Part shown: piece after piece, positions 3,239-51,115 of the stretch
How positions within the stretch are numbered: position 1 is the stretch's first letter
Layout of the letters: the number at the start of each line of letters is the position of its first letter
Source: Lentisphaeria bacterium UBA1724
Lineage (GTDB): Bacteria; Verrucomicrobiota; Lentisphaeria; Oligosphaerales; Oligosphaeraceae
Assembly: GCA_002315885.1 (NCBI GenBank)
Contig: DCIO01000110.1
Span: 201 to 64,200 of the forward strand
Direction of reading: 5' to 3'
DNA: 64,000 bases
The notes under the pieces: model-generated
The model's database searches: none
Told to the model about the DNA's origin: nothing
What the model saw: the letters and a program-made list of their open reading frames with translations, nothing else
Program-made: the position numbers and the translations under genes

Positions 3239-4257
3239 ATACGCTACTTCCCATTTTACAATCCGTGAATGACATCTTCTGGATTGTCGCACAGGTTGTC
3301 CTTTTGACATGCGCCTATTGGATTATCCTGCGGATTTTCCGCCATACGCAGGGCATTTATACCCTCTTTGCGGTGGTCTTCTTCTGGCTGGCGGTCAATT
3401 TCCTGAATAGCTGGGTGAATGTTTCCGTGATTACCTACCTGGCGGATGGATTGGTTAAGATTTTGCCCTTGGCGCTGGTGATTCTCTTCCAGGACGAAAT
3501 CCGGCGTTTCCTGGCTCATCCCATGGTGTGGGTGCGGCGCTTCGCACTGCAATTCCGTCTGCGTCGCGACCGCGTCATGCGTGGCGAGGTCATTCGTCGC
3601 AGCGTCGATGAGTTGGTCAAGGGGGTCTGTTGCCTGACAACAGATGAGAAATGGCGGGCGTTTTTGCGGGATTACTACCACGTGGACTTGGAGAAAGAGC
3701 GCCTGCAGAATGTGAATACGGGCGCGTTAATCGCCCTGGAAGGCATTACGGGCTTGGAGGAAATCCGGGGGGCGGGTGAACAACTGGACTGCGAAATCAA
3801 CTACCGACTCATTCGCACGATTTTCTATCCGGGGACGGCGTTGCATGATGGCGGTGTTATTCTGCGCATGACTCGTTCCGGGTTACACATCACTGCGGCG
3901 GGGTGCCGTTTTCCCATGGCGACCAAGAGCGATGGTCCTGTGCATGCCAGAACCAACGCGGCGCACGGCATGGCGGAACGTACGGATGCCTTCGTGTTGA
4001 TGGTTTCGGAGGAACGCGGGAGTGTCTTGCGACCCGATGAGGAGGACCCCCATCGTATGCATCGCTTTGAATCGCCCCAGGAATTACGCGAGTCGCTGAT
4101 TGAGTTTTGCCGTCAGAATGAGCGCGCAATCGTGGAAGTCAAGCAGAAGGATGTCCACGAATCGGCGGAAAACGGGGAGTCTGGAAAGGCATCCGAGACC
4201 GTATCGAAGTCGGAGTCCCATCAGGAAGAAGTCGCTGAGGTCAAAAAGGAGAAATAG
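3235..4257 (+). CDS. cdaA: Diadenylate cyclase (c-di-AMP synthase), membrane-anchored CdaA type
   Basis: N-terminal hydrophobic helices followed by a DAC domain (GALIALEG, FYPGTALHDGGVIL, RTNAAHGMAERTDAFVLMVSEERG). The GTG start overlaps the folP stop (GTGA). Confidence 0.9.
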   Translation: MNTLLPILQSVNDIFWIVAQVVLLTCAYWIILRIFRHTQGIYTLFAVVFFWLAVNFLNSWVNVSVITYLADGLVKILPLALVILFQDEIRRFLAHPMVWVRRFALQFRLRRDRVMRGEVIRRSVDELVKGVCCLTTDEKWRAFLRDYYHVDLEKERLQNVNTGALIALEGITGLEEIRGAGEQLDCEINYRLIRTIFYPGTALHDGGVILRMTRSGLHITAAGCRFPMATKSDGPVHARTNAAHGMAERTDAFVLMVSEERGSVLRPDEEDPHRMHRFESPQELRESLIEFCRQNERAIVEVKQKDVHESAENGESGKASETVSKSESHQEEVAEVKKEK

Positions 4258-7457: not shown

Positions 7458-8417
7458 ATGCCTTCTGAAGGGAATCTTGATTTTGCGGAGCCAGTACTGG
7501 AGTTGGTGCATCGTGCGGAGGCGCTGAAACGCCACGCACAGCAGAATCACCTGCACATTGACTCCGAACTGAAGACGCTTTTTGAGCGGATCCAGGAAGT
7601 GGAGGTGCGTTACCAGGATAGCCTGACGCCCTGGCAGCGTGTCCGCCTGGCCCGTCATCCCATGCGTCCCCATCCGCAGTATTTCTGCCGGATGATTTTC
7701 TCGGATTTGCTGGAGTTGCATGGTGACCGACGTTTTGGCGATGACTGGGCGGTTGGTGGCGGATTTGCCCGTCTGGGTGACAAGACCGTGATGGTGATTT
7801 TCACGCGGAAGGGCCACAACTTGGAACAATATCTCCAAAACCACTTCGGTTGTCCTGAGCCAGAAGGCTATCGGAAGGCCCTGCGTTTGATGAAGATTGC
7901 CGAGAAAGCCCATTGTCCCATTGTGACAATTGTGGATACTCCCGGAGCATATCCCGGCATCTCCGGCGGCGAACGACACATCGGCGAGGCCATCGCGGTG
8001 AATCTTCGGGAGATGTTCCGCCTGACGGTGCCGATTTTGTGCGTGGTGACAGGCGAGGGCGGTTCCGGCGGCGCACTAGGGCTTGCCGTGGGAAATCGCG
8101 TGCTGATGCTGGCCAATGCCTATTATTCCGCCATCACGCCCGAGGGCTGTGCCGCAATTCTTTGGCGAGACGAAAATAAGACCGCCGATGCCGCCGCCGC
8201 GCTGAAACTGACCGCCGACGACCTCCTGAAAATGAAGGTGATTGATGAAATCGTCCCCGAACCCCTGGGAGGCGCACACTGCAATCCTGGCGAGGCCGCG
8301 GCAATCCTGAAGGCCGCAATTATCAAGAACCTCAAAGCACTATGCAAGAAGTCCGCCTCCCGACTGAAGGAAGACCGATATGACCGCTTCCGGGAGATGG
8401 GAATCTATAAAGACTAA
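7458..8417 (+). CDS. accA: Acetyl-CoA carboxylase carboxyltransferase subunit alpha
   Basis: LDFAEP, RLARHPMRP, GDRRFGDD, PEGYRKALRLMKIAEK, TIVDTPGAYPG, GEGGSGGALG: full-length AccA pattern. Confidence 0.93.
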   Translation: MPSEGNLDFAEPVLELVHRAEALKRHAQQNHLHIDSELKTLFERIQEVEVRYQDSLTPWQRVRLARHPMRPHPQYFCRMIFSDLLELHGDRRFGDDWAVGGGFARLGDKTVMVIFTRKGHNLEQYLQNHFGCPEPEGYRKALRLMKIAEKAHCPIVTIVDTPGAYPGISGGERHIGEAIAVNLREMFRLTVPILCVVTGEGGSGGALGLAVGNRVLMLANAYYSAITPEGCAAILWRDENKTADAAAALKLTADDLLKMKVIDEIVPEPLGGAHCNPGEAAAILKAAIIKNLKALCKKSASRLKEDRYDRFREMGIYKD

Positions 8418-8446
8418 TGCTTAATGCTTAATGCTTAATGCTTAAT
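8415..8446. repeat. Tandem heptamer array (TAATGCT) x ~4.6; its first unit contains the accA stop codon
   Basis: taatgct x4 plus taat read directly. Same unit (reverse complement ATTAAGC) at 38693-38724 and 46909-46939. Confidence 0.9.
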
Positions 8447-10472: not shown

Positions 10473-10594
10473 GTTGAAAAATCTTGAATTCGTGATGATT
10501 GTCTAGTTGAAAAATCTTGAATTTGTGATAGTGTTTGGGTTGAAAAATCTTGAATTCGTGATAAATTCATTGGAAAGGATCTTGAATTCGTGAT
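10473..10594 (+). repeat. Four 24-bp direct repeats at exact 33-bp phasing (iteron/operator-like) upstream of the AAA-ATPase gene
   Basis: GTTGAAAAATCTTGAATT[C/T]GTGAT at 10473, 10506 and 10539, plus a degenerate copy tGgAAAggATCTTGAATTCGTGAT at 10571. The array ends 18 nt before the ATG. Confidence 0.85.
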
Positions 10595-15000: not shown

Positions 15001-16632
15001 GCTGCTGGGATAGAGGAATTCGTAGTTCGGGTTGCTCTTGCGGTGGAGTTTCCCTCCGGTATTGCAATCCGGAGTGAGGATGTCTGCTGCGCCTGGCGTT
15101 GCAACCTGGCTCAGGATGGGAAATTCGCTGGTCCAAAGACCGGATGCCGTGCTATGGTTGTCCACGGTCAGCATCCATTCGGCGCGGGAGCCTATGACAT
15201 GGATGGTTGCGGTCACGTCGGCAGTGCCCGTTTCGTCCACGGGCAGATTCTTCCAGGTGATGGTGATGGTGTCGCCATCGCGTTGAATGGCGGTGTTTTC
15301 CATTGGCACATCCAGGCTGCTGCGGGTGAAGGTCTCGTCGGAGGCCATGCCTTTCCTGAAATTGAGGCGCCACAACGGCCGCGGGTCCTGGCTGGCGCAA
15401 AAGATGGGGCCGCCTTTCTTGGAACGGATGCCATTGCAGGCGAAGCCGTGGGCGATGTCCGAAAAGGAGAGCACCAGGTCGTCGAACTCGAATACTTTGG
15501 CGCCCTGGAATTCGGTGGCCTTGTCGGCACTAAGGGCTGCAGTGCTTGCATCCGTGGTGTATGCCAGGACAACGGGTGCCTTGGCCTGGCTGAGGAATGA
15601 GGCATACCACTGGGAAGCCGTGCTGGATGGCCCCAAATAGAGCTTCGTGTCGATGGAAACACCGTCTTTGAGCTGCCAGACCTTGTTGGGCCGCAGGTAG
15701 TAGACGAATTGCTTCTGGGCATCGAAGCCGGTGGCAGGAGCAACCATGCCCACGGCGTCGTGGTCATTTTCCATGACAATCCATCCCTCCTTGAATACAT
15801 TGACCGCCTCGGGTTCCACAAGGCGATTGGGGAGGATTTCCTTTGCGTGGACGCCCTCCTGGTCCTCCCAGGCAAAGCGGTTGTATTTGAGGACATTGTT
15901 GGAGATTTGGCAGAAATTCAATTCGGGCCAGGTGTAGCCATCAGGGACGGTGCCGGTGAATTCCACTTGGACCACGGGGGAGAATGCGGTGTAGATGAAA
16001 CGGTAGTGGACTACGGGGGTTCCTGGCGCGTAGATGCCTGCATCGCTGATGTAGCCCGTGGTGGTCTCCACGACGGCGCGGAGGGGATTGGCGGAGACGA
16101 GGCGCGCGGTGCCCATTTCGTCCAGATATGCACGGTATTGCCCGCCCCGTTCTTTGCTGTGGAGTCGGTCAATGAAGGTGAGGGTGTTGTCGGTGTTCCC
16201 GCTGAAATTGAAGGAGAAATCCCGTGGCAGGCCGCCTGCGCCGAGGGTAGGGTGGTTCAGTGAGAAATACTGGTTGCGTATCTGGATGGTGCTGCCCTCA
16301 ACAAAGGCATTCAAATCAGTGGATAGGTCAGCGGGCACTCCTTCGACAAAGGAGAAATTGCGATTCTCTCCTGCGCGGACAATCCCAGACAGAAGGATGC
16401 TCAGGGTGGCGGTGCCGTCAGACTCTTCCGTAAAGGCATAGGGCGTGGACGCATTGGAGAGGGAATCTACCAACGCCTTCCCCTTCGCCTCGGAATATTG
16501 CTCGGGGGACAAACTGCAATTCACCACCAGGTTCGTGTAGTCAGAGGAAATCTTCTTGACTTCCACCTTGACTACGGCGAAGAGGCTACAGGCCAATAGG
16601 AGTAACACGGATAATGCCAGGAGTTTTTTCAT
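12085..16632 (-). CDS. Very large secreted multidomain protein; central DUF6259-like putative glycoside-hydrolase core, C-terminal CBM9/DOMON-like carbohydrate-binding domain
   Basis: 1515 aa with signal peptide MKKLLALSVLLLLACSLFA. Core motifs HWYDWHVIPFDTYYPEY, AIYLDQIGA, EHGH. C-terminal DGDLSDWEG...AFAWDEECLYIAAQVRDD. Function call from memory, tentative. Confidence 0.6.
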   Translation of the reverse strand: MKKLLALSVLLLLACSLFAVVKVEVKKISSDYTNLVVNCSLSPEQYSEAKGKALVDSLSNASTPYAFTEESDGTATLSILLSGIVRAGENRNFSFVEGVPADLSTDLNAFVEGSTIQIRNQYFSLNHPTLGAGGLPRDFSFNFSGNTDNTLTFIDRLHSKERGGQYRAYLDEMGTARLVSANPLRAVVETTTGYISDAGIYAPGTPVVHYRFIYTAFSPVVQVEFTGTVPDGYTWPELNFCQISNNVLKYNRFAWEDQEGVHAKEILPNRLVEPEAVNVFKEGWIVMENDHDAVGMVAPATGFDAQKQFVYYLRPNKVWQLKDGVSIDTKLYLGPSSTASQWYASFLSQAKAPVVLAYTTDASTAALSADKATEFQGAKVFEFDDLVLSFSDIAHGFACNGIRSKKGGPIFCASQDPRPLWRLNFRKGMASDETFTRSSLDVPMENTAIQRDGDTITITWKNLPVDETGTADVTATIHVIGSRAEWMLTVDNHSTASGLWTSEFPILSQVATPGAADILTPDCNTGGKLHRKSNPNYEFLYPSSGGAPTQFFAFMQDGYGLYFASHDGEARPKTMRLTIDPDSYFALLAENQGTPGVGLHQPFPYVTEVFQGTWWKAAKLYRAWAAENAKWLKQGLIRENPDYPKAIQEICYWFQTWKDGPGMSKYMQTAMERCPVKHGVHWYDWHVIPFDTYYPEYNPAKPGVPDTAQAIAARGQICMPYINGRLWDLDIDSFKTEGITGASLDPKGETYVEIYPSQRRQAPMCSASETWQKKMLEVCDWMLNDCHFNAIYLDQIGASAPALCYNPEHGHTLGGGTYWVDGYREMLSAINQEAAKHNAFLTTENTTECYMDNIHAFLTWGQFHDTDVPLLAAIYSGYTYYFGSTTTPEDTDQAFRMIQGRAFLWGTQLGWNVDYLLGKRFEHRFNYQMQLAKLREATLDFLSLGELMGEITPLNTVPLVHETWNFRPGKSYPASEGNVPALQGTYWQNAKGELCVYLVNYTDEVQPLEYNLPKLDNSKDVLLTLITQNGRAPMEVVPNGARRKTALLPQEVAVLHIVPADNQDVLTQAEKSARETLNAPKDERLRNAAEKFLLLRNVKCEVEAPDIVKLVTGENPVIDLHLKGNFKTDATIEAILDAENATRMTVVPQNGVIDAKLGISFEMAQKVLATNGGLFTTRITFAEHDGALTLPMRFKVTDPFEVEVRLPEQIFAGDSFPCEVVVKNNTSHSQDLQVQLSLPEGCTTPYAGAETLFLKEVAPNSSRSTCLTLITDKDAELEEAQFSAMLVLSQVKAITSIQPPRPEYHASKATGIVLDGDLSDWEGRQFVQVGENTPRRIIYKTHPYGGNSDLSARVAFAWDEECLYIAAQVRDDIHVNPEKTGDIWKGDAIQVSIREKGPAMKASDIGKLYEFALGCDDNGAFVYTWANLAHLLNLTKAAQTIHGDTITMEFSVPWKVIGLPNPTAENTYGISFVVPDMDTTDRPVAKLNSMDGYIEWTPGIFYGKNPSRFAWLYLE

Positions 16633-16685
16633 AGGACGGATAGGACGGGTAGGACGGGTAGGACGGGTAGGACGGATAGGACGGG
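16632..16685. repeat. Tandem nonamer array (TAGGACGGR) x6, abutting/overlapping the start codon of the 1515-aa gene
   Basis: taggacgga taggacggg x3 taggacgga taggacggg read directly. In the sense of the minus-strand gene this reads (CCCGTCCTA)n followed immediately by ATG (16630-16632). Confidence 0.9.
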
Positions 16686-16720: not shown

Positions 16721-19303
16721 TTACCGTCTTTCCACCCATTTTGCGGCGTAGAGTCCTGCGGGGTGGATGTCGTGTGCGGGGGCGATGATTTGTCCGTGGA
16801 GGCGTTCTTTGCCGAAGAGTGTTGCGATGGGGATTTCCAGGGTAATTTGGAGGGTGGTGTCCTTTCCCTTGATGTCTGTGGGGATGTCCCAGTCGAAGGG
16901 CGCCCAGAGACGGCATCCCAGATTCTGTCCGTTGATTGCGACGGATGCGCAGTGTCCTGCGGTCTCCAGGCGGAGTGCGTCGGCGGTTTCGGGGATGTTG
17001 ACCGTCCGAGTCAGAGTGGCTTTCCCGATGAAATTTCGGAATCCCTGTTCGGAGAGTGGTCCCAGTCGGACACTCTTGGGCAGTGGTCCGATGGTCATTT
17101 CGCCTGGGCGTACCATTTTGACGGCGAAATTGCCCAGTAGGAATGCGCTGGGCAGGTAGGGGTATTCCGTCTTTTTGCCATCCAGTGCGAGAGTGTGTCT
17201 GCCGGATTCCAGGTCGATTGTCTCGCTGGTGCGGTAGAGTGGCGCCACCCCCTGGGGAAGGCCCTCGCCTGGGTTGCTGGCGGAAATGGGCGTGCCATCC
17301 ATTCGCACTGCCCCTGGGACGCCGTATGCGCGGATTAGTGCCTTGGGGCAGGGCGTGTCCTTGGCGACTGTCAGGCGGAGAGTCCCCTCTGCATCGTATT
17401 CGGGGCAGAGGATGTTCTTGCGGTCCAGCACGATTTCCCAGGGTGCGTCGGGGAGGTCCAATGCGTATTCCACGAAATCGGCAGAGGGTTGGTCGGTGTC
17501 GTGGAAGATTTTGATGTCGCCCGCGGGCAGATTGAAGATGATATCCCGGTCGGGGTTGGGACCGATACGGAAATGCAGACGCCGGGTGGGTGCATCGGGT
17601 TCTCGGAGGTCCAGGGCAACGCAGGTGCCGTCGTCGTAGTATCGGAGCATGACGTCCCTGGCGAGGGTGTCTCGTGAATTCATGACTCGGAAAGGCTGGC
17701 AGTAGTTGATGTCGAGATAGAGCATGAATGCCGCCATGTCGAAGAAGGTCTTCTTGCTGATTTCGTCGTAGATTGAGCCGTCCTTTTGGAATGTGACCAC
17801 GGCCAGTGCGTCTTTCGAGGCGGCGTCATCCTTGTGGATGAATCTCCAGGAGCGTTGGTAGCGTGTCATGAGTCGCAGGTAGTACGGCTGGTTGGAGAAG
17901 TCCTCTGCGTAGCGGATTTCCACCTCGACTTTGTTCCAGGGTTTCCGTGCAAAACGCGCGGCTTCCTTTGCGGTTTCGCCCAATTGGTCATAGTGGTCGA
18001 ACCAGGTCTGAGCGGGTGAGGTGGGGTTGAACCACATGGTCTTGTGGAGATTCCCTTCCGCCTGGAATTGCGAGACCGCCAGCAGATAATGGTCCACTCC
18101 GAAGAGCGCGGTGAGCCAGATCATCTGTTTGTAGGAACCGGGCTGCATGTCACCGGGGCCTAGGGCGAATAATTCCGCCAATCCGCAGCCACGCTGACGA
18201 CTGCCGTATTCCACCGTTCCCAGGGTCTGCCATTCGATGGCGTCGGGATTGGTGTTGGTGAAGATTTCGTCCATCCCCGGCATGGAGAAGCCCGCATTTG
18301 CCAGGAGTGGATCGCCGTTGTATCGGGCGGCCTGGCAATCCAATTCGTTCATCAGGTGCCCCGTAAGGAGGATGCCGTGGTTTTCGCACCAGGTGCGGAT
18401 GGTATCGAAGTATGTCTTGCGGAAACGCGCTCCCATGAGCTTCTGGTATGGAACCCGATAGCAGAAGGGCGCGGTGCCCTGGAGATGGGCGCGGAGGTCC
18501 TCTTTCAATTCGTGTCCCGTCAATTCTCGGTATTCTTCCTCCAGTTCGGGATACCAGGCCAGGCGGACTTCGGTGTCGCTGTCGCCCTCATATTGCTCGT
18601 AGTAGTATGCTACGGAGGGCTCGTCAGAGAAAATGCCCTTGATGAGCGTGCCGAAATACTTCCCGAAGCGCTTGTAGTATTCTTCGTGGGTGAGCTGGAT
18701 GAAGAGTTCCACCGCCTCGGGATTCAGCAGGTTGGGGAACTGCTTCAGGGACTTGAGCTCGAAGGTGATTTCGCTAGGCTGTTTTTTTCGCCCTAAAGGG
18801 CTCACACAGGACAGAAGGGCCTCTCTACTAGCCCGGGGTTGGGAATTCTTCCTGGCATAGAGGCACTGGACGGCGAAGGCCTCCCGTGCCTGCATTACGC
18901 GCCCCGCGCATTGTCCGCTGGGCCAATTGAATTCGTCATAGAGCCAGATGGATGTATAGCCGTGCGCTTCTGCGGCGTCCAACACATTCTGGATTGCCTG
19001 GAACCACTCTTCGGAGAGGTATTCCAGCTCACAGCCCGAGCGGGGATAGAGCAGAAACTGGGTGATGCCCACCCGCCGGAATTCCCCCATGAATTGGGAG
19101 ATGAACTCCCGGGAGGGGCGCCCCGTTACCGCACTCATGGGAATTAGCGGATTTTCCTGGGGGGCGGGAGTTTTTCGCGCTAAAGCGCTCACACAGGACG
19201 GAAGGGACTCTCTGCTATCCCGAGGAGTGGTGTTTTGTTGGGCAGGAAGAAGCATGGCAAGCGGGAAAAACAGAAGAAGCAGAAATCGCATGAATTGATT
19301 CAT
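16721..19303 (-). CDS. Secreted glycoside-hydrolase-like protein with C-terminal jelly-roll (GH2 sugar-binding-like) domain; contains two in-frame repeat-element insertions
   Basis: 860 aa with signal peptide MNQFMRFLLLLFFPLAMLLPA. TIM-barrel-like N-terminal part (FLLYPRSG, WLYDEFNWPSG). C-terminal RNFIGKATLTRTV...INGQNLG. Function tentative. Confidence 0.6.
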   Translation of the reverse strand: MNQFMRFLLLLFFPLAMLLPAQQNTTPRDSRESLPSCVSALARKTPAPQENPLIPMSAVTGRPSREFISQFMGEFRRVGITQFLLYPRSGCELEYLSEEWFQAIQNVLDAAEAHGYTSIWLYDEFNWPSGQCAGRVMQAREAFAVQCLYARKNSQPRASREALLSCVSPLGRKKQPSEITFELKSLKQFPNLLNPEAVELFIQLTHEEYYKRFGKYFGTLIKGIFSDEPSVAYYYEQYEGDSDTEVRLAWYPELEEEYRELTGHELKEDLRAHLQGTAPFCYRVPYQKLMGARFRKTYFDTIRTWCENHGILLTGHLMNELDCQAARYNGDPLLANAGFSMPGMDEIFTNTNPDAIEWQTLGTVEYGSRQRGCGLAELFALGPGDMQPGSYKQMIWLTALFGVDHYLLAVSQFQAEGNLHKTMWFNPTSPAQTWFDHYDQLGETAKEAARFARKPWNKVEVEIRYAEDFSNQPYYLRLMTRYQRSWRFIHKDDAASKDALAVVTFQKDGSIYDEISKKTFFDMAAFMLYLDINYCQPFRVMNSRDTLARDVMLRYYDDGTCVALDLREPDAPTRRLHFRIGPNPDRDIIFNLPAGDIKIFHDTDQPSADFVEYALDLPDAPWEIVLDRKNILCPEYDAEGTLRLTVAKDTPCPKALIRAYGVPGAVRMDGTPISASNPGEGLPQGVAPLYRTSETIDLESGRHTLALDGKKTEYPYLPSAFLLGNFAVKMVRPGEMTIGPLPKSVRLGPLSEQGFRNFIGKATLTRTVNIPETADALRLETAGHCASVAINGQNLGCRLWAPFDWDIPTDIKGKDTTLQITLEIPIATLFGKERLHGQIIAPAHDIHPAGLYAAKWVERR
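18786..18826 (+). repeat. Interspersed hairpin element ('CACAGGAC element'), intragenic copy, GCCC/GGGC stem variant
   Basis: tttcgccctaaagggctcacacaggacagaagggcctctct. Translated in the host CDS as ..LLSCVSPLGRK.. Confidence 0.85.
19173..19213 (+). repeat. Interspersed hairpin element, intragenic copy, GCGC/GCGC stem variant
   Basis: tttcgcgctaaagcgctcacacaggacggaagggactctct. Translated in the host CDS as ..LPSCVSALARK.. Confidence 0.85.
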
Positions 19304-19351
19304 GATTCAAGATTTTGGATTTCAATCAATTCAGAATCGAGAATCAAGAAT

Positions 19352-20104
19352 CTATTTTGGGAAGGACACTGCCACACCGATGCGTGCGGCGGCGGCCATC
19401 AGGAGTTCCAGGCGCTTTTGAAGCGGTGTGTCGTCATAAACAGACATGTTGTTGGAAAGCGAGAGTCCCGCGATGAGTTCGCCGTTCATGGAACGGACGG
19501 GGACAGCCAAGGACCAGACGCCCTCCACGGATTCATTCTGGATCAAGGCGTATTGCTTCTCGGCGATTTCACCGCAGAGGCGGTCCAATTTTCCCACGTC
19601 GGTGACGGTTTCCCGGGTGACTTGCCGGCGGATGATGCGCTTAAAGAGACGCCGCCGTTCCTCGGTGGGCATGAGCGCCACGATCAGTCGTCCGCATGCG
19701 GTGGAGTGGAGTTGGTCCATCCAGCGTTGTTCTGGGGGCGTAAAGAAGTTGTCTTCGGGATTCAGGATGGACAGGCAGAGCAGGGTGTCATTCTCGATGG
19801 TGCCCAGGAAGACGGTGCATTGGGTGTCATCCCGCAGTTCTTTCAGGATTGCGTTGGAGGACTTTCGCAGGTCATGCCAGTGGTCGGCGGCCTGTCCCAG
19901 GTAGAAACAGTGGGACCCCAGGCGGTACTTTCGGGAGGTGTCCTGGCTGACAAGCCGCAGAGAGTAGAGCTCACGGAGGATGTTCCCTACAGTCTGCTGA
20001 GATAGGCCTAGCTGTTGCGCCAACATGCTGGCGGAGACCGTCTCCGGGCTATTTGCCGCCAGGATGTCTAGGATTTCGATGGCTCTGTCTATGGATTGGA
20101 TCAT
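19352..20104 (-). CDS. IclR-family transcriptional regulator
   Basis: MIQSIDRAIEILDILA...MLAQQLGLSQQTVGNILRELYSLRLV winged HTH plus a C-terminal IclR effector domain. The start is set at the ATG at 20104, because the longer ORF (to 20173) begins inside repeat DNA. Confidence 0.85.
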   Translation of the reverse strand: MIQSIDRAIEILDILAANSPETVSASMLAQQLGLSQQTVGNILRELYSLRLVSQDTSRKYRLGSHCFYLGQAADHWHDLRKSSNAILKELRDDTQCTVFLGTIENDTLLCLSILNPEDNFFTPPEQRWMDQLHSTACGRLIVALMPTEERRRLFKRIIRRQVTRETVTDVGKLDRLCGEIAEKQYALIQNESVEGVWSLAVPVRSMNGELIAGLSLSNNMSVYDDTPLQKRLELLMAAAARIGVAVSFPK

Positions 20105-20111
20105 GGGCAAT

Positions 20112-20250
20112 TGGGGATTTCGCGCTAAAGCGCTGGGGATTTCGCGCTGGTGATTTCGCGCTAAAGCGCTCACACAGGACAGAAGGGTCTCTCTCCTTTC
20201 CAGGGGGATTGGTAAAAGCGCTGGGGATTTCGCGCTGGGGATTTCGCGCC
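20112..20250 (+). repeat. Cluster of five GGGGATTTCGCGCT-type 14-mers surrounding one CACAGGAC element (20154-20194)
   Basis: ggggatttcgcgct at about 20113, 20135, 20223 and 20237, plus ggtgatttcgcgct at about 20149. The full element tttcgcgctaaagcgctcacacaggacagaagggtctctct is at 20154-20194. Confidence 0.85.
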
Positions 20251-20300
20251 CCTCGTTTCGCTGGGCTTGCGCCCGCTACACGAGGGGCTGCACCTACGGG
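20249..20300 (+). repeat. Second interspersed element family (CCCCTCGT...ACGAGGGG stem-loop), copy 1
   Basis: cccctcgtttcgctgggcttgcgcccgctacacgaggggctgcacctacggg. 8-bp inverted repeat. Closely similar to 32573-32624. Confidence 0.8.
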
Positions 20301-28875: not shown

Positions 28876-28930
28876 GCTTTCCGAAGGGACCGTCAAACCG
28901 CCATTACGGTCGGGGGGACGGGCGCCGCCC

Positions 28931-29058
28931 TTTTTCGACGGCGGGGACGCCGTCGGTACACCCCTTTTCGACGGCGGGGACGCCGTCGGTACATCCCTTT
29001 TTCGACGGCGGGGACGCCGTCGGTACACCCCTTTTCGACGGCGGGGACGCCGTCGGGA
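28931..29058. repeat. Four tandem 33/34-bp units, each with an 8-bp-stem GGGA-tetraloop hairpin
   Basis: TTTTCGACGGCGGGGACGCCGTCGGTACACCCC x4. Hairpins CGACGGCG-GGGA-CGCCGTCG at 28936, 28969, 29003 and 29036. Lies between convergent genes. Confidence 0.9.
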
Positions 29059-29066
29059 CTTCCTGG

Positions 29067-31194: not shown

Positions 31195-31309
31195 GACTGA
31201 CTCCTTATAATCAAAATCTTCCGCATGAAAGCGGCAAACCGATAGTATAAAGGCAATTGCACGTTTTTCACATGGATTCGGCGGCTTTTTCGGGTTTCTT
31301 TGGGAGGAA

Positions 31310-31339
31310 TAGGACGGATAGGACGGATAGGACGGATAG
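31310..31339. repeat. Tandem nonamer array (TAGGACGGA) x3.3 in divergent intergenic region
   Basis: taggacgga x3 plus tag read directly. Same unit and same orientation as 16632-16685. Lies 115 nt upstream of the minus-strand acyl-CoA synthetase start. Confidence 0.9.
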
Positions 31340-32510: not shown

Positions 32511-32572
32511 CGGGGACTGACATAAATCGTTTGAAGCTCCGCCGCCTTTCGCCTTTCCGCGGTTCTGGAATG

Positions 32573-32624
32573 CCCCTCGTTTCGCCGGGTTGACGCCCGC
32601 TACACGAGGGGCGCACCTACGGGG
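32573..32624 (+). repeat. Second interspersed element family (CCCCTCGT...ACGAGGGG), copy 2
   Basis: cccctcgtttcgccgggttgacgcccgctacacgaggggcgcacctacgggg. Aligns with 20249-20300 with few substitutions. Confidence 0.8.
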
Positions 32625-37137: not shown

Positions 37138-38574
37138 CTAGATGGTCACGGCGTTGCCGGCGACGGCCTGCTGGGCATTCTCGGCCAGGAAGGGCTTGAC
37201 TTCCTCGGCCAGGAATTCCGCCACCTGCTGTGGGGCGCGGCCCACATACTTTTCGGGACGGAGGGTTTCGGAAAGGTCCAGATTGACCTTGGCGAAATGG
37301 GGATCCTTGGCCAGGCGCTCCAGCAGGTCGTTGTCACCGCCGTCAATCTTGACGTGTGCGGCTGCGGCCTGTGCGTTGGCGCGGATGACTTCGTGGAGTT
37401 CCTGACGGTCGCCGCCTGCCTTGACGGCGTCCATCATGATGTTTTCGGAAGCCATGAAGGGCAGTTCTGCCGCCAGGCGCTTTGCGATGACCTTGGGATA
37501 GACCACCAGGCCATTGGAGACATTGGCGAAGAGGTCCAGGATGCCGTCCACTGCCAGGAATGCCTCTGCCACGGCGATGCGCTTGTTGGCGGAGTCATCC
37601 AGGGTCCGTTCGAACCACTGTGTGGCCACGGTGATGGCGGGATTCAGGGCATCGCAGATGACATAGCGGGAGATGGAGGCGATGCGCTCACTGCGCATGG
37701 GGTTCCGCTTGTATGCCATGGCGGAGGAGCCAATCTGGGATTTTTCGAAGGGCTCTTCCACTTCCTTTAGGTGCTGAAGCAGACGGATGTCGTTGGAGAA
37801 CTTGGTTGCGGTCTGTGCGATGCCGGAGAGCACATTCAGGATGCGGGCATCAATCTTGCGGGAATAGGTCTGGCCGGAGACCGCGTAGCAGCCCGGGAAG
37901 CCCAGTTTTTCCGCAATCATGGCGTCCAGTTTGCGGCACTTGGCGTGGTCCCCATTGAAGAGTTCCAGGAAGCTGGCCTGGGTGCCGGTGGTGCCCTTGC
38001 TGCCCAGGAGCTTCAGGCCATTCATCACGTAATCCAGGTCCGCGATGTCGGAGAGGACATCCTGGAGCCAGAGGGTGGCGCGCTTGCCCACGGTGGTGGG
38101 CTGTGCGGGCTGGAAGTGTGTGAATGCCAGGGTGGGCATGTCGGCATACTTCTCGGCGAAGGCCGCCAGGTTCTCCACCACGGTGACCAGCTTTCCACGC
38201 AGGAGTTTCAGGCCTTCCCGCATGATGATCAGGTCGGTGTTATCACCAACATAGCAGGAGGTAGCTCCCAGATGGATGATGCCCTTCGCCTTGGGGCACA
38301 GCTCGCCGTAGGCAAAGACGTGGCTCATCACATCGTGACGGACAATCTTCTCGCGGGCCTCGGCCACCTCGAAGTTGATGTCTTCCACATGGGCACGCAA
38401 CTCCTCAAGCTGCTCGTCGGTGATGGAAAGACCCAGGGATTGCTCGGATTCCGCCAGGGCAATCCACAGCTTGCGCCAGGTGGAGAACTTGTGCTGCTCC
38501 GAGAAGATGCGCTGCATCTCCTTGCTTGCGTATCGGACGGAGAAGGGACTCTGGAAGGTATCGTGGTTGGACAT
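37138..38574 (-). CDS. purB: Adenylosuccinate lyase
   Basis: 478 aa. Fumarate-lyase signature GSSAMAYKRNP plus typical N-terminus SPFSVRYASKEM. Confidence 0.92.
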   Translation of the reverse strand: MSNHDTFQSPFSVRYASKEMQRIFSEQHKFSTWRKLWIALAESEQSLGLSITDEQLEELRAHVEDINFEVAEAREKIVRHDVMSHVFAYGELCPKAKGIIHLGATSCYVGDNTDLIIMREGLKLLRGKLVTVVENLAAFAEKYADMPTLAFTHFQPAQPTTVGKRATLWLQDVLSDIADLDYVMNGLKLLGSKGTTGTQASFLELFNGDHAKCRKLDAMIAEKLGFPGCYAVSGQTYSRKIDARILNVLSGIAQTATKFSNDIRLLQHLKEVEEPFEKSQIGSSAMAYKRNPMRSERIASISRYVICDALNPAITVATQWFERTLDDSANKRIAVAEAFLAVDGILDLFANVSNGLVVYPKVIAKRLAAELPFMASENIMMDAVKAGGDRQELHEVIRANAQAAAAHVKIDGGDNDLLERLAKDPHFAKVNLDLSETLRPEKYVGRAPQQVAEFLAEEVKPFLAENAQQAVAGNAVTI

Positions 38575-38581
38575 GGCTTAA

Positions 38582-38612
38582 TTTCGCGCTAAAGCGCTCA
38601 CACAGGACAGAA
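38582..38612 (+). repeat. Interspersed hairpin element (CACAGGAC element), 3'-truncated copy
   Basis: tttcgcgctaaagcgctcacacaggacagaa, 8 nt after the purB start codon region (intergenic). Confidence 0.85.
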
Positions 38613-38692
38613 AATTGGTATGCGGAATGAGTTACGGATGGGGAGATGTCCCCATACTCCTCTTTTACTCAATGCTTCATGATTTCTACTTC

Positions 38693-38724
38693 ATTAAGCA
38701 TTGAGCATTAAGCATTAAGCATTG
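38693..38724. repeat. Tandem heptamer array (ATTAAGC) x ~4.5, directly 3' of the purC stop in gene sense
   Basis: attaagc attgagc attaagc attaagc attg read directly. In purC sense this reads TAA-ttc-(AATGCTT)n, the same orientation as the array after accA. Confidence 0.9.
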
Positions 38725-44539: not shown

Positions 44540-44616
44540 GCCAAAGTAGCTCAGTCGGTTAGAGCAGCTGGCTGTTAACCAGCGGGTCCGGGGTTCAAGT
44601 CCCTGCTTTGGCGCCA
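44540..44616 (+). tRNA. tRNA-Asn (anticodon GTT), CCA encoded
   Basis: Cloverleaf drawn by hand. Acceptor GCCAAAG/CTTTGGC, D stem GCTC/GAGC, anticodon stem GCTGG/CCAGC with loop CTGTTAA, T arm CGGGG-TTCAAGT-CCCTG, discriminator G, CCA. Confidence 0.93.
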
Positions 44617-46261: not shown

Positions 46262-46696
46262 ATGAGTTCTTATGTAGAACTGCCCATGGGCATTAGCTTG
46301 ATTCCGTGTGATACTCTCATTGAGGATCGCATTTCGGGGAAGAAGTCTCTCGTGGGTATCATTGGCGCCATTCGGGTCACCAAGTTCCCCTGCGTCTATC
46401 CCGCGTTTCATTTGCTTGTCTCCCTGACCAGCGGCAATGGCAGCTACCCCTGCACGTTGGAGTTGGTTAGTGAGAGCAAGAACGAGGTGATTTTTTCGGG
46501 AAAGGGAACGCTGAAATTCAAGAACCCCACGCAGGTCGTGGATCTGGTCTTCATGCTCCAGCGTCTGAATTTCAACTACCCCGATACCTACTGGATTAAG
46601 TTCCTGGTGGATGGGGAAACCCTGATGATGCGCCCCTTGCACGTGACCTTGCTGGACCCCCCGGAGGATTCCGCAAAACGCGATGCTTCGCTCTAA
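46262..46696 (+). CDS. Small hypothetical protein (beta-rich; possibly DUF6941-like)
   Basis: 144 aa from the ATG at 46262, preceded by GGAGG 5 nt upstream. Pattern IPCD...GIIGAI...FP...FHLLVSL...WIKFLVDGE resembles DUF6941 from memory; low certainty on family. Confidence 0.6.
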   Translation: MSSYVELPMGISLIPCDTLIEDRISGKKSLVGIIGAIRVTKFPCVYPAFHLLVSLTSGNGSYPCTLELVSESKNEVIFSGKGTLKFKNPTQVVDLVFMLQRLNFNYPDTYWIKFLVDGETLMMRPLHVTLLDPPEDSAKRDASL

Positions 46697-46703
46697 ACCT
46701 TTT

Positions 46704-46862
46704 TTTCGCCCTAAAGGGCTCACACAGGACAGAAGGATCTCGTACCTGCTCAAGGGCTCACACAGGACAGAAGGGCCTCGAAGCTGCTCCAGGTTTTCCA
46801 GTTTTCGCCCTAAAGGGCTCACACAGGACAGAAGGGCATCGGAGTTGCTCCAGGTTTTCCAG
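46704..46862 (+). repeat. Three CACAGGAC elements (one 5'-truncated) embedded in a ~62-bp tandem unit
   Basis: Copies at 46704, 46752 and 46803. The last two are each followed by ...gctccaggttttccag. All GCCC/GGGC stem variant. Confidence 0.88.
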
Positions 46863-46908
46863 TTTTCCCAGTGGCGAAGAGGGGTATGGGGAAACCTCCC
46901 CATCCTTC

Positions 46909-46939
46909 ATTAAGCATTAAGCATCAAGCATTAAGCATT
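46909..46939. repeat. Tandem heptamer array (ATTAAGC) x ~4.4, 8 nt upstream of gspF ATG
   Basis: attaagc attaagc atcaagc attaagc att read directly. Preceded by hairpin ATGGGGA-aacc-TCCCCAT (46886-46903). Confidence 0.9.
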
Positions 46940-46946
46940 TCAAAGA

Positions 46947-48143
46947 ATGCCGTTATTCAAATACAAAGTCAGTGATGCCGCAGGCAAGGTCAGCGAAATC
47001 CTCATCGAGGGCGATTCGCAGAATGACGCCGCGCGGCGTTTGCAGCGTCGTGGGATGGTCCCCTTGGCGTTCCTGGGGGAGGGCGCAGCCGCGCGTGGTC
47101 ACCAGGGTTTCCTGAAGAAGGGCGTGGATGTGGTGGATTTCACGGATAGGTTGGTGCCCTTGCTGGAGGCGAATATCCCCCTGGAGCGAGCACTGGCAAT
47201 TCTGGGAGACGAACCCGATAACCCACAGCTGCAGAAGTTGGTGGGGGATTTACGCCGTGGACTTCATGAAGGCCGCCGTCTTTCTGATTTGGTCAAAGAC
47301 CAGGGAAGCACCTTCCCCGCAGTCTATGCGGGTGTGGTGGAGGCCGGCGAGGAGGCTGGCGCTCTGCCGCAGGTGATGGGGCAGCTGCGGAATTTCATGA
47401 CTACCGCAGCAGAACTCAAGAGCTTCATCATCTCCAGTTCCATTTATCCCGGCTTCATTGCAGTGGCGGGTATCGCCATGCTGGGGTTTGTGCTGGGTGT
47501 CATCGTCCCGAAATTCGCCACCTCCCTGGCAGGGGCGGGCATCCAATCCGCCGCCACGGATTTCCTGATGGCGGTCTCCAATTTCGTGCGGTCATACTGG
47601 TGGATTTCCTTTATCCTGGTGGCGCTCTTGATTTGGATGATTTCACAAATCCGCCGGACTGACACGGGCCTTCGTCGCTGGTGGGATAGCCTCACGGTGA
47701 AGTTGCCCATTTTCGGCAAATTGGTCCTCTACAGCAATCTCTCCCGTTTTGCCCGGACCATGGCGATTCTGATGCGCAGTGGCGTGCCGCTGTTGAATAC
47801 CGTCTCCATCGCCAATCGCGTCATCCAGAATCTGACCATGCGTGGGTCCCTGGACGAAGTGGCGGGAGAATTGCGTCAGGGACAGAAGATTTCTGGGGCA
47901 CTCTCCAAGAGCAACTACATTCCTTCCATGATGCTCCGTATGATTTCCGTGGGCGAAGAGACGGGCAATGTGGAAGAGATGCTGGACCGTGTGGCGGACC
48001 GCTACGAAAATGACCTGAAGAAGTCCATCAAGCGTCTGCTCTCCCTTTTCGAGCCACTGATCATTGTCTTCCTGGGATTGGGCATCGGTCTGGTGGTGCT
48101 GTTGATGTTCACGGCCATCATGGATATGCAGCACGCGGTATAA
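46947..48143 (+). CDS. gspF: Type II secretion system protein F (GspF/PilC family)
   Basis: 398 aa. Two T2SSF repeats with three TM segments; typical N-terminus MPLFKYKVSDAAGKV...EGDSQNDAARRLQRRG. Confidence 0.88.
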   Translation: MPLFKYKVSDAAGKVSEILIEGDSQNDAARRLQRRGMVPLAFLGEGAAARGHQGFLKKGVDVVDFTDRLVPLLEANIPLERALAILGDEPDNPQLQKLVGDLRRGLHEGRRLSDLVKDQGSTFPAVYAGVVEAGEEAGALPQVMGQLRNFMTTAAELKSFIISSSIYPGFIAVAGIAMLGFVLGVIVPKFATSLAGAGIQSAATDFLMAVSNFVRSYWWISFILVALLIWMISQIRRTDTGLRRWWDSLTVKLPIFGKLVLYSNLSRFARTMAILMRSGVPLLNTVSIANRVIQNLTMRGSLDEVAGELRQGQKISGALSKSNYIPSMMLRMISVGEETGNVEEMLDRVADRYENDLKKSIKRLLSLFEPLIIVFLGLGIGLVVLLMFTAIMDMQHAV

Positions 48144-48645: not shown

Positions 48646-48650
48646 GGCGA

Positions 48651-50942: not shown

Positions 50943-50946
50943 ATAA

Positions 50947-51115
50947 CCCCGGGGCTCTCGCCCCGGGCACAGGACCCGGGGGCTGCCGCTCCGGGCACAC
51001 GACCCGGGGGCTCTGCGCTCCGGGCACACGACCCGGGAGCTCTGCGCTCCGGGCACACGACCCGGGGGCTGCCGCCCCCTCCCGGGGCTCTCGCTCCGGG
51101 CACAGGACCCGCTCC
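50947..51115. repeat. About five tandem 28-32-bp GC-rich units, each with a CCGGG-CACACGA-CCCGG hairpin
   Basis: ccgggcaca[c/g]gacccggg[g/a]gct[ctg/gc]cgct at 50963, 50991, 51020 and 51049, plus a degenerate end copy at 51096. Starts right after the ruvB stop. Confidence 0.88.

Follow-up and report, generated by a model that had tools for sequence, protein, structure and literature searches.

A short, probably selfish interspersed repeat in a gut Victivallales genome fragment, with one copy in frame in a glycoside-hydrolase-like gene

The window analysed here, a stretch of 64,000 nucleotides taken as a whole, is a fragment of a gut Victivallales genome, and the nearest named homologs of its proteins were found in Victivallales and Lentisphaeria MAGs. 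Both strands of the window were scanned with the degenerate 25-mer GCSCTAAAGSGCTCACACAGGACAG (hairpin plus core), allowing three mismatches at most, and seven matches were found, all on the plus strand, at 18790, 19177, 20158, 38586, 46708, 46746 and 46807. The 14-nt core by itself recovers the identical seven sites, and none of 100 dinucleotide-preserving shuffles contained a match to the 25-mer. With nhmmer --max and with a covariance model run with its filters off, the sole addition was a solo hairpin module at 20118-20134, and neither search recognized any copy on the minus strand or any decayed copy; the family, as seen here, thus appears to be young and sharply delimited. The first-pass annotation had reported seven copies in one orientation among flanking genes on both strands, and the pattern scan (seven of seven on the plus strand, none on the minus strand) and the gene calls agree with this. 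The copies, and the genes that hold four of them in their coding region or leader, are the following.

16721..19303, minus strand: host gene of c1 and c2, encoding an 860-aa glycoside-hydrolase-like protein (790 homologs, structure search)
18785..18844, plus strand: c1, full-length copy of 60 nt, GCCC/GGGC stem (pattern scan, gap in homologs)
19171..19231, plus strand: c2, GCGC stem, core variant GGACGG (pattern scan, homolog alignment)
19352..20104, minus strand: IclR-family regulator gene, whose leader holds c3 and the solo hairpin module
20118..20134, plus strand: solo 5' hairpin module TTTCGCGCTAAAGCGCT, without the core (nhmmer, covariance model)
20153..20213, plus strand: c3, GCGC stem, in the leader of the IclR-family gene (pattern scan)
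37138..38574, minus strand: purB (adenylosuccinate lyase), whose leader holds c4
38582..38612, plus strand: c4, 5' module only (3'-truncated), GCGC stem (pattern scan)
46700..46751, plus strand: c5, array unit A, GCCC/GGGC stem, short variant 3' part (pattern scan)
46752..46801, plus strand: c6, array unit B, 5' hairpin arm replaced, core and full 3' module present
46802..46862, plus strand: c7, 61 nt, GCCC/GGGC stem (pattern scan)

The element is made up of two modules. Within the 34-nt 5' module, a T run precedes a 4-bp hairpin (GCSC-TAAA-GSGC), after which comes an unpaired core of 18 nt, TCACACAGGACAGAAGG; the module is followed by a variable 3' module of about 25 nt, usually with a second small hairpin and a G-rich end. 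Among intact copies, 29-34 of the 34 positions of the 5' module are identical, and the 5' modules of c1, c5 and c7 do not differ at all across 28 kb; the identity of the 3' modules across loci is 35-70%, with neighbours closer to each other (c1 to c3 are alike, and so are c6 and c7). When aligned, the copies form a mosaic, and the type of stem is independent of the type of 3' module, because c1 pairs a GCCC stem with a 3' half like that of c2 and c3. The two stem forms described previously, GCGC-TAAA-GCGC (at 19173, 20154 and 38582) and GCCC-TAAA-GGGC (at 18786, 46704 and 46803), were both recovered; only these two positions differ between the two forms of the module, besides a private A>G in one GCGC copy. 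The copy at 46752, which had been called 5'-truncated, has indeed lost the 5' arm of its hairpin, but the arm is replaced there by other sequence.

In the first helix, 93.8% of the pairs are kept by pair count; one pair is changed on both sides (CG in four cases, GC in three), and no single-arm mismatch was found in the stems of the intact copies. By our own uniform-substitution estimate, the probability of a complementary double change in a module of about 30 nt is about 0.003, so that, judging from the sequences, the change in the stem is unlikely to be due to chance and the pairing is probably real. The same change had been put forward as a sign that the hairpin is under selection. The complementarity stands, but the step to selection is less secure: the covariation may represent a single event, or it may be the result of hairpin-templated correction, which is the known mechanism of quasipalindrome mutation, rather than of selection. 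The hairpin (-3 to -4 kcal/mol as DNA and about -6 to -7 kcal/mol as RNA) is predicted in nearly all folds and yet is weak, with 5-33% of shuffles folding equally well. Eight of nine folds of the whole element (60-70 nt) were no better than those of shuffles (z = -0.5 to +1.8), the exception being the minus strand of c3 (z = -2.31). A second helix covaries between c1 (GGGC/GCCC) and c2 (GGGA/TCCC); however, a conserved second hairpin was rejected, with 64.5% pairing overall and a helix that is not kept in the other copies. The 3' hairpin has 3-4 bp and shifts in position.

No terminal inverted repeats were found, the ends TTTTCGCCC... and ...GGGGTTGGGA being unrelated as inverted repeats, and no target-site duplications are visible at the copies; no direct repeat flanks c1. 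The bases 5' of the stem are TTTC after the T run in all copies, and a WTTT run always precedes CGCSC, with a target and the T run of the element itself being inseparable. At the gathering threshold, no Rfam family matched the element (only a tRNA at 44540-44613 passes), and a relaxed Rfam scan of the array region at 46650-46950 gave only matches of E > 2, far under the gathering scores, so a known RNA family was rejected. A reading as promoter or terminator was likewise rejected, because neither a sigma-70-like promoter nor a terminator consensus exists within the elements.

On the minus strand, c1 constitutes exactly 60 nt, or 20 in-frame codons (S154-K173; SQPRASREALLSCVSPLGRK), of the gene for the 860-aa protein. 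This segment is gapped in all 13 aligned homologs (40-61% identity), and invariant residues continue on both sides of it; the T run leaves the exact boundary uncertain by about 3 nt. In the AlphaFold model (pTM 0.81), which is otherwise confident, residues 155-175 lie between the strands at 144-152 and 179-190 and have a pLDDT below 50; the c1 peptide maps to this low-confidence loop of the host protein, whose fold is glycoside-hydrolase-like according to a structure search. Exactly one minus-strand frame is open through all of c1, and it is the one that is used. This clean in-frame loop insertion is the most notable feature of the family. The second copy in the gene, c2, falls in an N-terminal extension that is missing from the homologs; it is upstream of the conserved Met56, at a distance of 33 nt, and the true start of the gene may be Met56 at 19138. 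As an in-frame coding copy, c1 is certain and c2, which is in the same frame of the same gene, is possible; peptide searches gave no other host proteins. Within 19138-19303, the called start ATG lies inside a heptamer repeat, and the N-terminus there, MNQFMRFLLLLFFPLAMLLPAQQ, is signal-peptide-like and lacking in homologs. If the N-terminal extension of the 860-aa product is real, a new N-terminus would have been created by repeats.

The solo hairpin module and c3 are found 14 nt and about 50 nt, respectively, upstream of the ATG (20104) of the IclR-family gene, and 14-nt partial repeats, GCGCTGGGGATTTC, surround c3 at 20130-20162 and 20218-20249. The ATG of purB (38574) is only 7 nt from c4. 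The first array unit, c5, begins 4 nt past the stop codon of a DUF6941 gene, and the array c5-c7 lies between two plus-strand genes, DUF6941 and gspF, in antisense to them. GC skew is positive from position 1 to about 50 kb, across all copies, which are therefore situated within one skew domain. The strand bias had been offered as a sign of mobilisation; the orientation is uniform, but the independent loci number only about five, all five sharing it (two-sided P = 0.0625) within one stretch of GC skew.

The tandem unit of about 62 bp noted in the first-pass annotation at 46704-46862 was found as a tandem array with a period of 61: Tandem Repeats Finder gave 1.9 copies with 94% matches at 46752-46867. 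A period of 38 separates the first two cores of the array, and the 27-nt stretches between its 34-nt modules are 87% identical to each other (20/23). A CRISPR-like array was rejected, because these 'spacers' are near-identical, the period-61 units match at 94% and the other copies are dispersed singly. By exact protein matches, the window belongs to an IMG contig (3300001598|EMG_10000474, 68,784 bp; the JGI copy is called L051 here). We compared the two, and exactly two differences were found, both of them tandem arrays. In L051, the element array is about 64 nt longer and has five cores, with a truncated copy at the position of c7 followed by a further A'-B' pair. This longer five-core array also exists in a second metagenome (L052, L071), and the window has the shorter version. 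In the other array, which is composed of 33/67-nt hairpin units at 28.9 kb, the window exceeds L051 by one 67-nt double unit. Because the window and the JGI record disagree at these two arrays, array lengths are assembly-sensitive. Independent assemblies of the same species break within the element, the Logan contigs L053 and L054 ending at 38610, L052 ending at 46821 and L071 starting in the array; this is the behaviour of a multicopy k-mer, and the element fragments metagenome assemblies of its host species in this manner. The dispersed copies are identical in four samples (JGI 3300001598, JGI 3300020112, SRR5323917 and SRR1221442), and no filled/empty-site polymorphism was found among the same-species assemblies, all of which have the same copies.

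The element is absent from about 80 kb of five relatives, four of which (L073, L062, L059 and L058) have a PurB 86-92% identical to that of the window and one of which (L056) was reached via a 52%-identical homolog of the host protein of c1. It is also absent from the orthologous purC-purB spacer in all four of the PurB relatives, and the closest relatives found via the glycoside-hydrolase-like and PurB homologs (L056, L058-L064 and L073) have no element. A likeness of the module to the 3' end of purC in relatives (nhmmer E of about 1-9) was treated as chance. A 17-nt pattern, which is too short, found 50 single chance matches in GTDB genome contigs and none with the rest of the element; two scans of the JGI metagenome collection (evidently without the source samples) with 22-23-nt patterns, and a pattern scan of IMG/VR, gave no matches. 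At the protein level, a chimeric query of the four open frames of the element found nothing at E <= 10 among 5.8 billion proteins, and the array ORF matched none of 1.84 billion representative proteins. As for mobilising enzymes, no transposase Pfam family, including Y1_Tnp, is present in the gene calls of the contig at 1,075-53,137 and 54,620-68,784. The statement that no RAYT or IS200/IS605 transposase lies in the window is hence borne out for these two parts of the 68.8-kb contig.

We are rather confident that these copies belong to a selfish dispersed repeat family, and we put at roughly 0.6 the probability of the fuller reading, namely that the element is a young, lineage-specific, non-autonomous interspersed repeat of about 60 nt that expands locally by slippage. 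By appearance, it is a selfish mini-element of recent origin and of a generally familiar kind. The earlier proposal that the repeat is mobile or expanding agrees with the in-frame insertion that homologs lack, with the relatives that have no copies and with the assemblies that break at the element; the label that was given to the mechanism is not established, as described below. New copies insert at unrelated sites in a single orientation, and established copies then expand or contract by slippage or by unequal recombination between their own short repeats. Such local expansion gives rise to the 38-, 61- and about 125-nt structures of the array and to the 14-nt partial repeats, and the microhomologies GGGCTCACAC and GCGCT account for the 38-nt, 61-nt and 14-nt structures. 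Copies persist where the harm is small, as in intergenic leaders, or in a surface loop of a protein, provided that they are read in the only fully open frame and have a length divisible by three. Insertion may proceed via a single-stranded intermediate, and a trans-acting enzyme of the HUH/Y1 type, encoded elsewhere in the genome, may recognise the hairpin together with the conserved single-stranded core. A mechanism of this sort would explain why terminal inverted repeats and target-site duplications are lacking, why all copies share one orientation and why only the 5' module is strongly conserved. Mobilisation of single-stranded DNA by an HUH enzyme is therefore the mechanism that we would name first, as a tentative guess.

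Among the other explanations, the best is that the element is a functional cis-acting motif, either a protein-binding site or a leader-RNA element of the minus strand, which was recruited before several genes and whose 34-nt module is kept for function and not for mobility. The placement of c2, c3 (with the solo hairpin) and c4, all in sense upstream of three minus-strand starts, puts three of the five loci just upstream of start codons. Drift is confined to the rest of the element, the 5' module being nearly invariant; the stem covaries; and in the 3' hairpin of c6 the minus strand has G-U where the plus strand has A-C, all of which are consistent with this reading. However, the leader between purC and purB is without the element in all relatives examined, and because relatives lack it, we do not read the element as a conserved regulatory site. 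Moreover, one copy is within a coding region, the array is antisense between two plus-strand genes, units are tandemly duplicated and truncated, and the glycoside-hydrolase-like enzyme, the IclR-family regulator and purB share no obvious regulon. Together with the absence of promoter or terminator consensus sequences and of an Rfam family, these features make a cis-acting function unlikely, and the reading as a selfish dispersed repeat is preferred.

REP sequences are imperfect palindromes that reach up to 65 nt and form a stable GC-rich stem-loop with a conserved unpaired tetranucleotide at its foot; in a REPtron, they flank the cognate RAYT gene. They are generally palindromes of 20-40 nt with an unpaired GTAG or CGTC tag, often arranged as inverted pairs (PMC3733652, PMC6006769). 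The first-pass annotation had attributed the repeats to mobilisation of the REP/RAYT or IS200/IS605 type, and a bona fide REP or REPIN family moved by RAYT (TnpA-REP) would share several features with the element: both REP/BIME/REPIN sequences and the present repeats are short, hairpin-bearing, multicopy and mostly extragenic, form local clusters and include occasional intragenic copies, as intragenic REPs are known (PMC3733652). Both are also presumed to be handled as single-stranded DNA, and both are without terminal inverted repeats or target-site duplications. The window has other tandem repeats with GC-rich hairpins (28928-29063) that are more REP-like than the element. In the element, however, the sole conserved helix is of 4 bp with a 4-nt loop, giving a palindrome of 12 nt, in contrast to the stems of roughly 8-15 bp in REPs; the only GTAG is an accidental one in the 3' loop of c1, and CGTC is lacking as a tag, with WTTT or TTTC as the 5' tetranucleotide instead. 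All copies are direct and none is on the minus strand, a long conserved unpaired core follows the hairpin, and no Y1 gene such as that for RAYT is found nearby or elsewhere in the gene calls of the contig. Because the palindrome size, the tag and the inverted doublets all differ from those of REPs, the REP/RAYT label fails on these three defining features, and a true REP family is very unlikely.

The IS200/IS605 label is not established either, although its resemblance to the element is closer in some respects. Like the PATEs of this family, the element has no terminal inverted repeats or target-site duplications, its copies are oriented strand-specifically at the about five independent loci, and a variable interior separates the small hairpins close to its two ends. 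An orientation set by the lagging-strand template would fit the single orientation within one GC-skew domain, and the hairpin that is followed by a conserved single-stranded tract also fits mobilisation of the IS200/IS605 type. The hairpins of IS200/IS605 elements are of 20-25 nt (PMC6006769). Those of the present element are far shorter than these TnpA-bound hairpins, the one at the 5' end being of 12 nt, so that subterminal hairpins of about 20-25 nt do not exist at both ends, and its two hairpins are unrelated in sequence; insertion in this family takes place 3' of a fixed tetranucleotide, whereas the element has no definable target tetranucleotide, and no tnpA or tnpB was seen in the gene calls of the contig. 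A further idea, which we consider decidedly improbable, is that the 34-nt module represents the recognition and cleavage site of an undescribed mobilisation system in Lentisphaerota, either strand-specific for single-stranded DNA (HUH-like) or RNA-guided, that spreads a 60-nt frame-compatible cassette in a single orientation. If this were true, the element would belong to none of REP, PATE and MITE but would found a mini-element class of its own, a new one.

A classical MITE, which derives from an insertion sequence by deletion and relies on a DDE transposase for its movement, would likewise be small, non-coding, multicopy and mostly intergenic, and in-frame insertions of MITEs are documented (PMC10969869). 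MITEs end in inverted repeats of about 4-30 bp and are flanked by target-site duplications (PMC10969869), whereas the ends of the element share no inverted repeats and no duplication is found at c1, where the borders are set within about 3 nt by homolog alignment; this argues against a classical MITE as defined in that paper. In addition, all copies are in a single orientation and the element is not AT-rich, and we regard the MITE reading as highly improbable. Finally, chance similarity or an assembly artefact, for which only the disagreement between the window and the JGI record at the two tandem arrays could be cited, is ruled out for the dispersed copies by the shuffles and by the identity of these copies in independent assemblies from four samples, and has next to no probability overall.

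The selfish interspersed repeat proposed here can also be compared with other known families. The palindromic elements of Rickettsia (RPEs) are palindromes of about 100-150 bp with many intragenic copies, and coding repeats of this type insert repeatedly, in frame, into ORFs that are unrelated and encode a conserved peptide there. As in RPE and the intragenic ERIC/BOX-type repeats, an in-frame copy exists in a conserved enzyme gene, where it encodes a loop peptide and leaves the rest of the protein intact; unlike RPE, the element is of 60 nt, is weakly palindromic and has one certain in-frame case. The BOX elements of Streptococcus pneumoniae (boxA-boxB-boxC), the modules of which are of 45-59 nt and jointly form one long stem-loop, resemble it in their modular build, which includes modules that occur alone, copies that are truncated and sub-units repeated in tandem to a variable extent. 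BOX and the present element have no sequence relation, and their phyla differ. To our knowledge, there are hardly any descriptions of small interspersed repeats from the PVC/Lentisphaerota lineage, and this family is a clean example of a 20-codon in-frame insertion that is tolerated in a loop of a conserved glycoside-hydrolase-like protein. As it stands, it is a descriptive addition to a well-known class and opens no new question. Should a complete genome reveal an orientation linked to replication as well as a cognate HUH enzyme, mobilisation of the single-stranded-DNA type would be extended to an unusually small hairpin.

The window harbors a number of other repeats. The array at 28928-29063 consists of four tandem 33-nt units between convergent genes; each unit has an 8-bp GC-rich hairpin (TTTTCG-ACGGCG-GGGA-CGCCGT-CGGTACA), more REP-like than the element studied here. 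Heptamer arrays of the type (CATTAAG/AGCATTA)n, which recall the STRR heptamers of cyanobacteria, are present in both orientations in intergenic leaders at 8415-8446, 38692-38723 and 46908-46939, and also at about 3480-3520 of L065; the Logan contigs L066 and L072 end in heptamer arrays. Among other heptamers, (GAATTGA)n is found at 16685 and (ATTCTCA)n, as its reverse complement, at 48650; two more are (GGAATTA)n, at 2266, and TGATTCA/AGAATCA, at 19296-19352. A tandem 9-mer, (ATAGGACGG)n, is found in six copies at 16631-16684, ending beside the start codon of a minus-strand gene for a 1515-aa DUF6259/CBM9 protein, and in 3.4 copies at 31309-31339.

A second small repeat, with the hairpin GTATGGGGA-NNN-CTCCCCATCC, was recognized at 38636-38657 (minus strand) and 46884-46905 (plus strand), in each case with a copy of the element on one side and a CATTAAG heptamer array on the other; reading the two sites on both strands gives four matches, where 0.02 would be expected. 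Two plus-strand copies of a hairpin element of 41 nt, GCCCCTCGT...ACGAGGGGC, with a 9-bp stem are found at 20248-20288 and 32572-32612, with 90% identity, the former being the immediate downstream neighbour of c3 and its 14-mer repeats. The spacer between two plus-strand ORFs at 50946-51111 contains a GC-rich 29-nt unit, CCGGGCACACGACCCGGGGGCTCTGCGCT, in about 4.4 tandem copies, and 3.8 tandem copies of a 33-nt AT-rich unit, GTTGAAAAATCTTGAATTCGTGATAATGTCTA, are found at 10473-10594, in a low-GC stretch upstream of an AAA_14/DUF4143 gene. Upstream of position 1 of the window, L065 has two tandem units of about 60 nt (…CGCCTTCGGCATGCAGGGCGGGGGCTCGTTC…) at 3380-3480; these precede the CATTAAG-type heptamer array upstream of a GHL10 gene, and two independent contigs, L066 and L067, start inside them.
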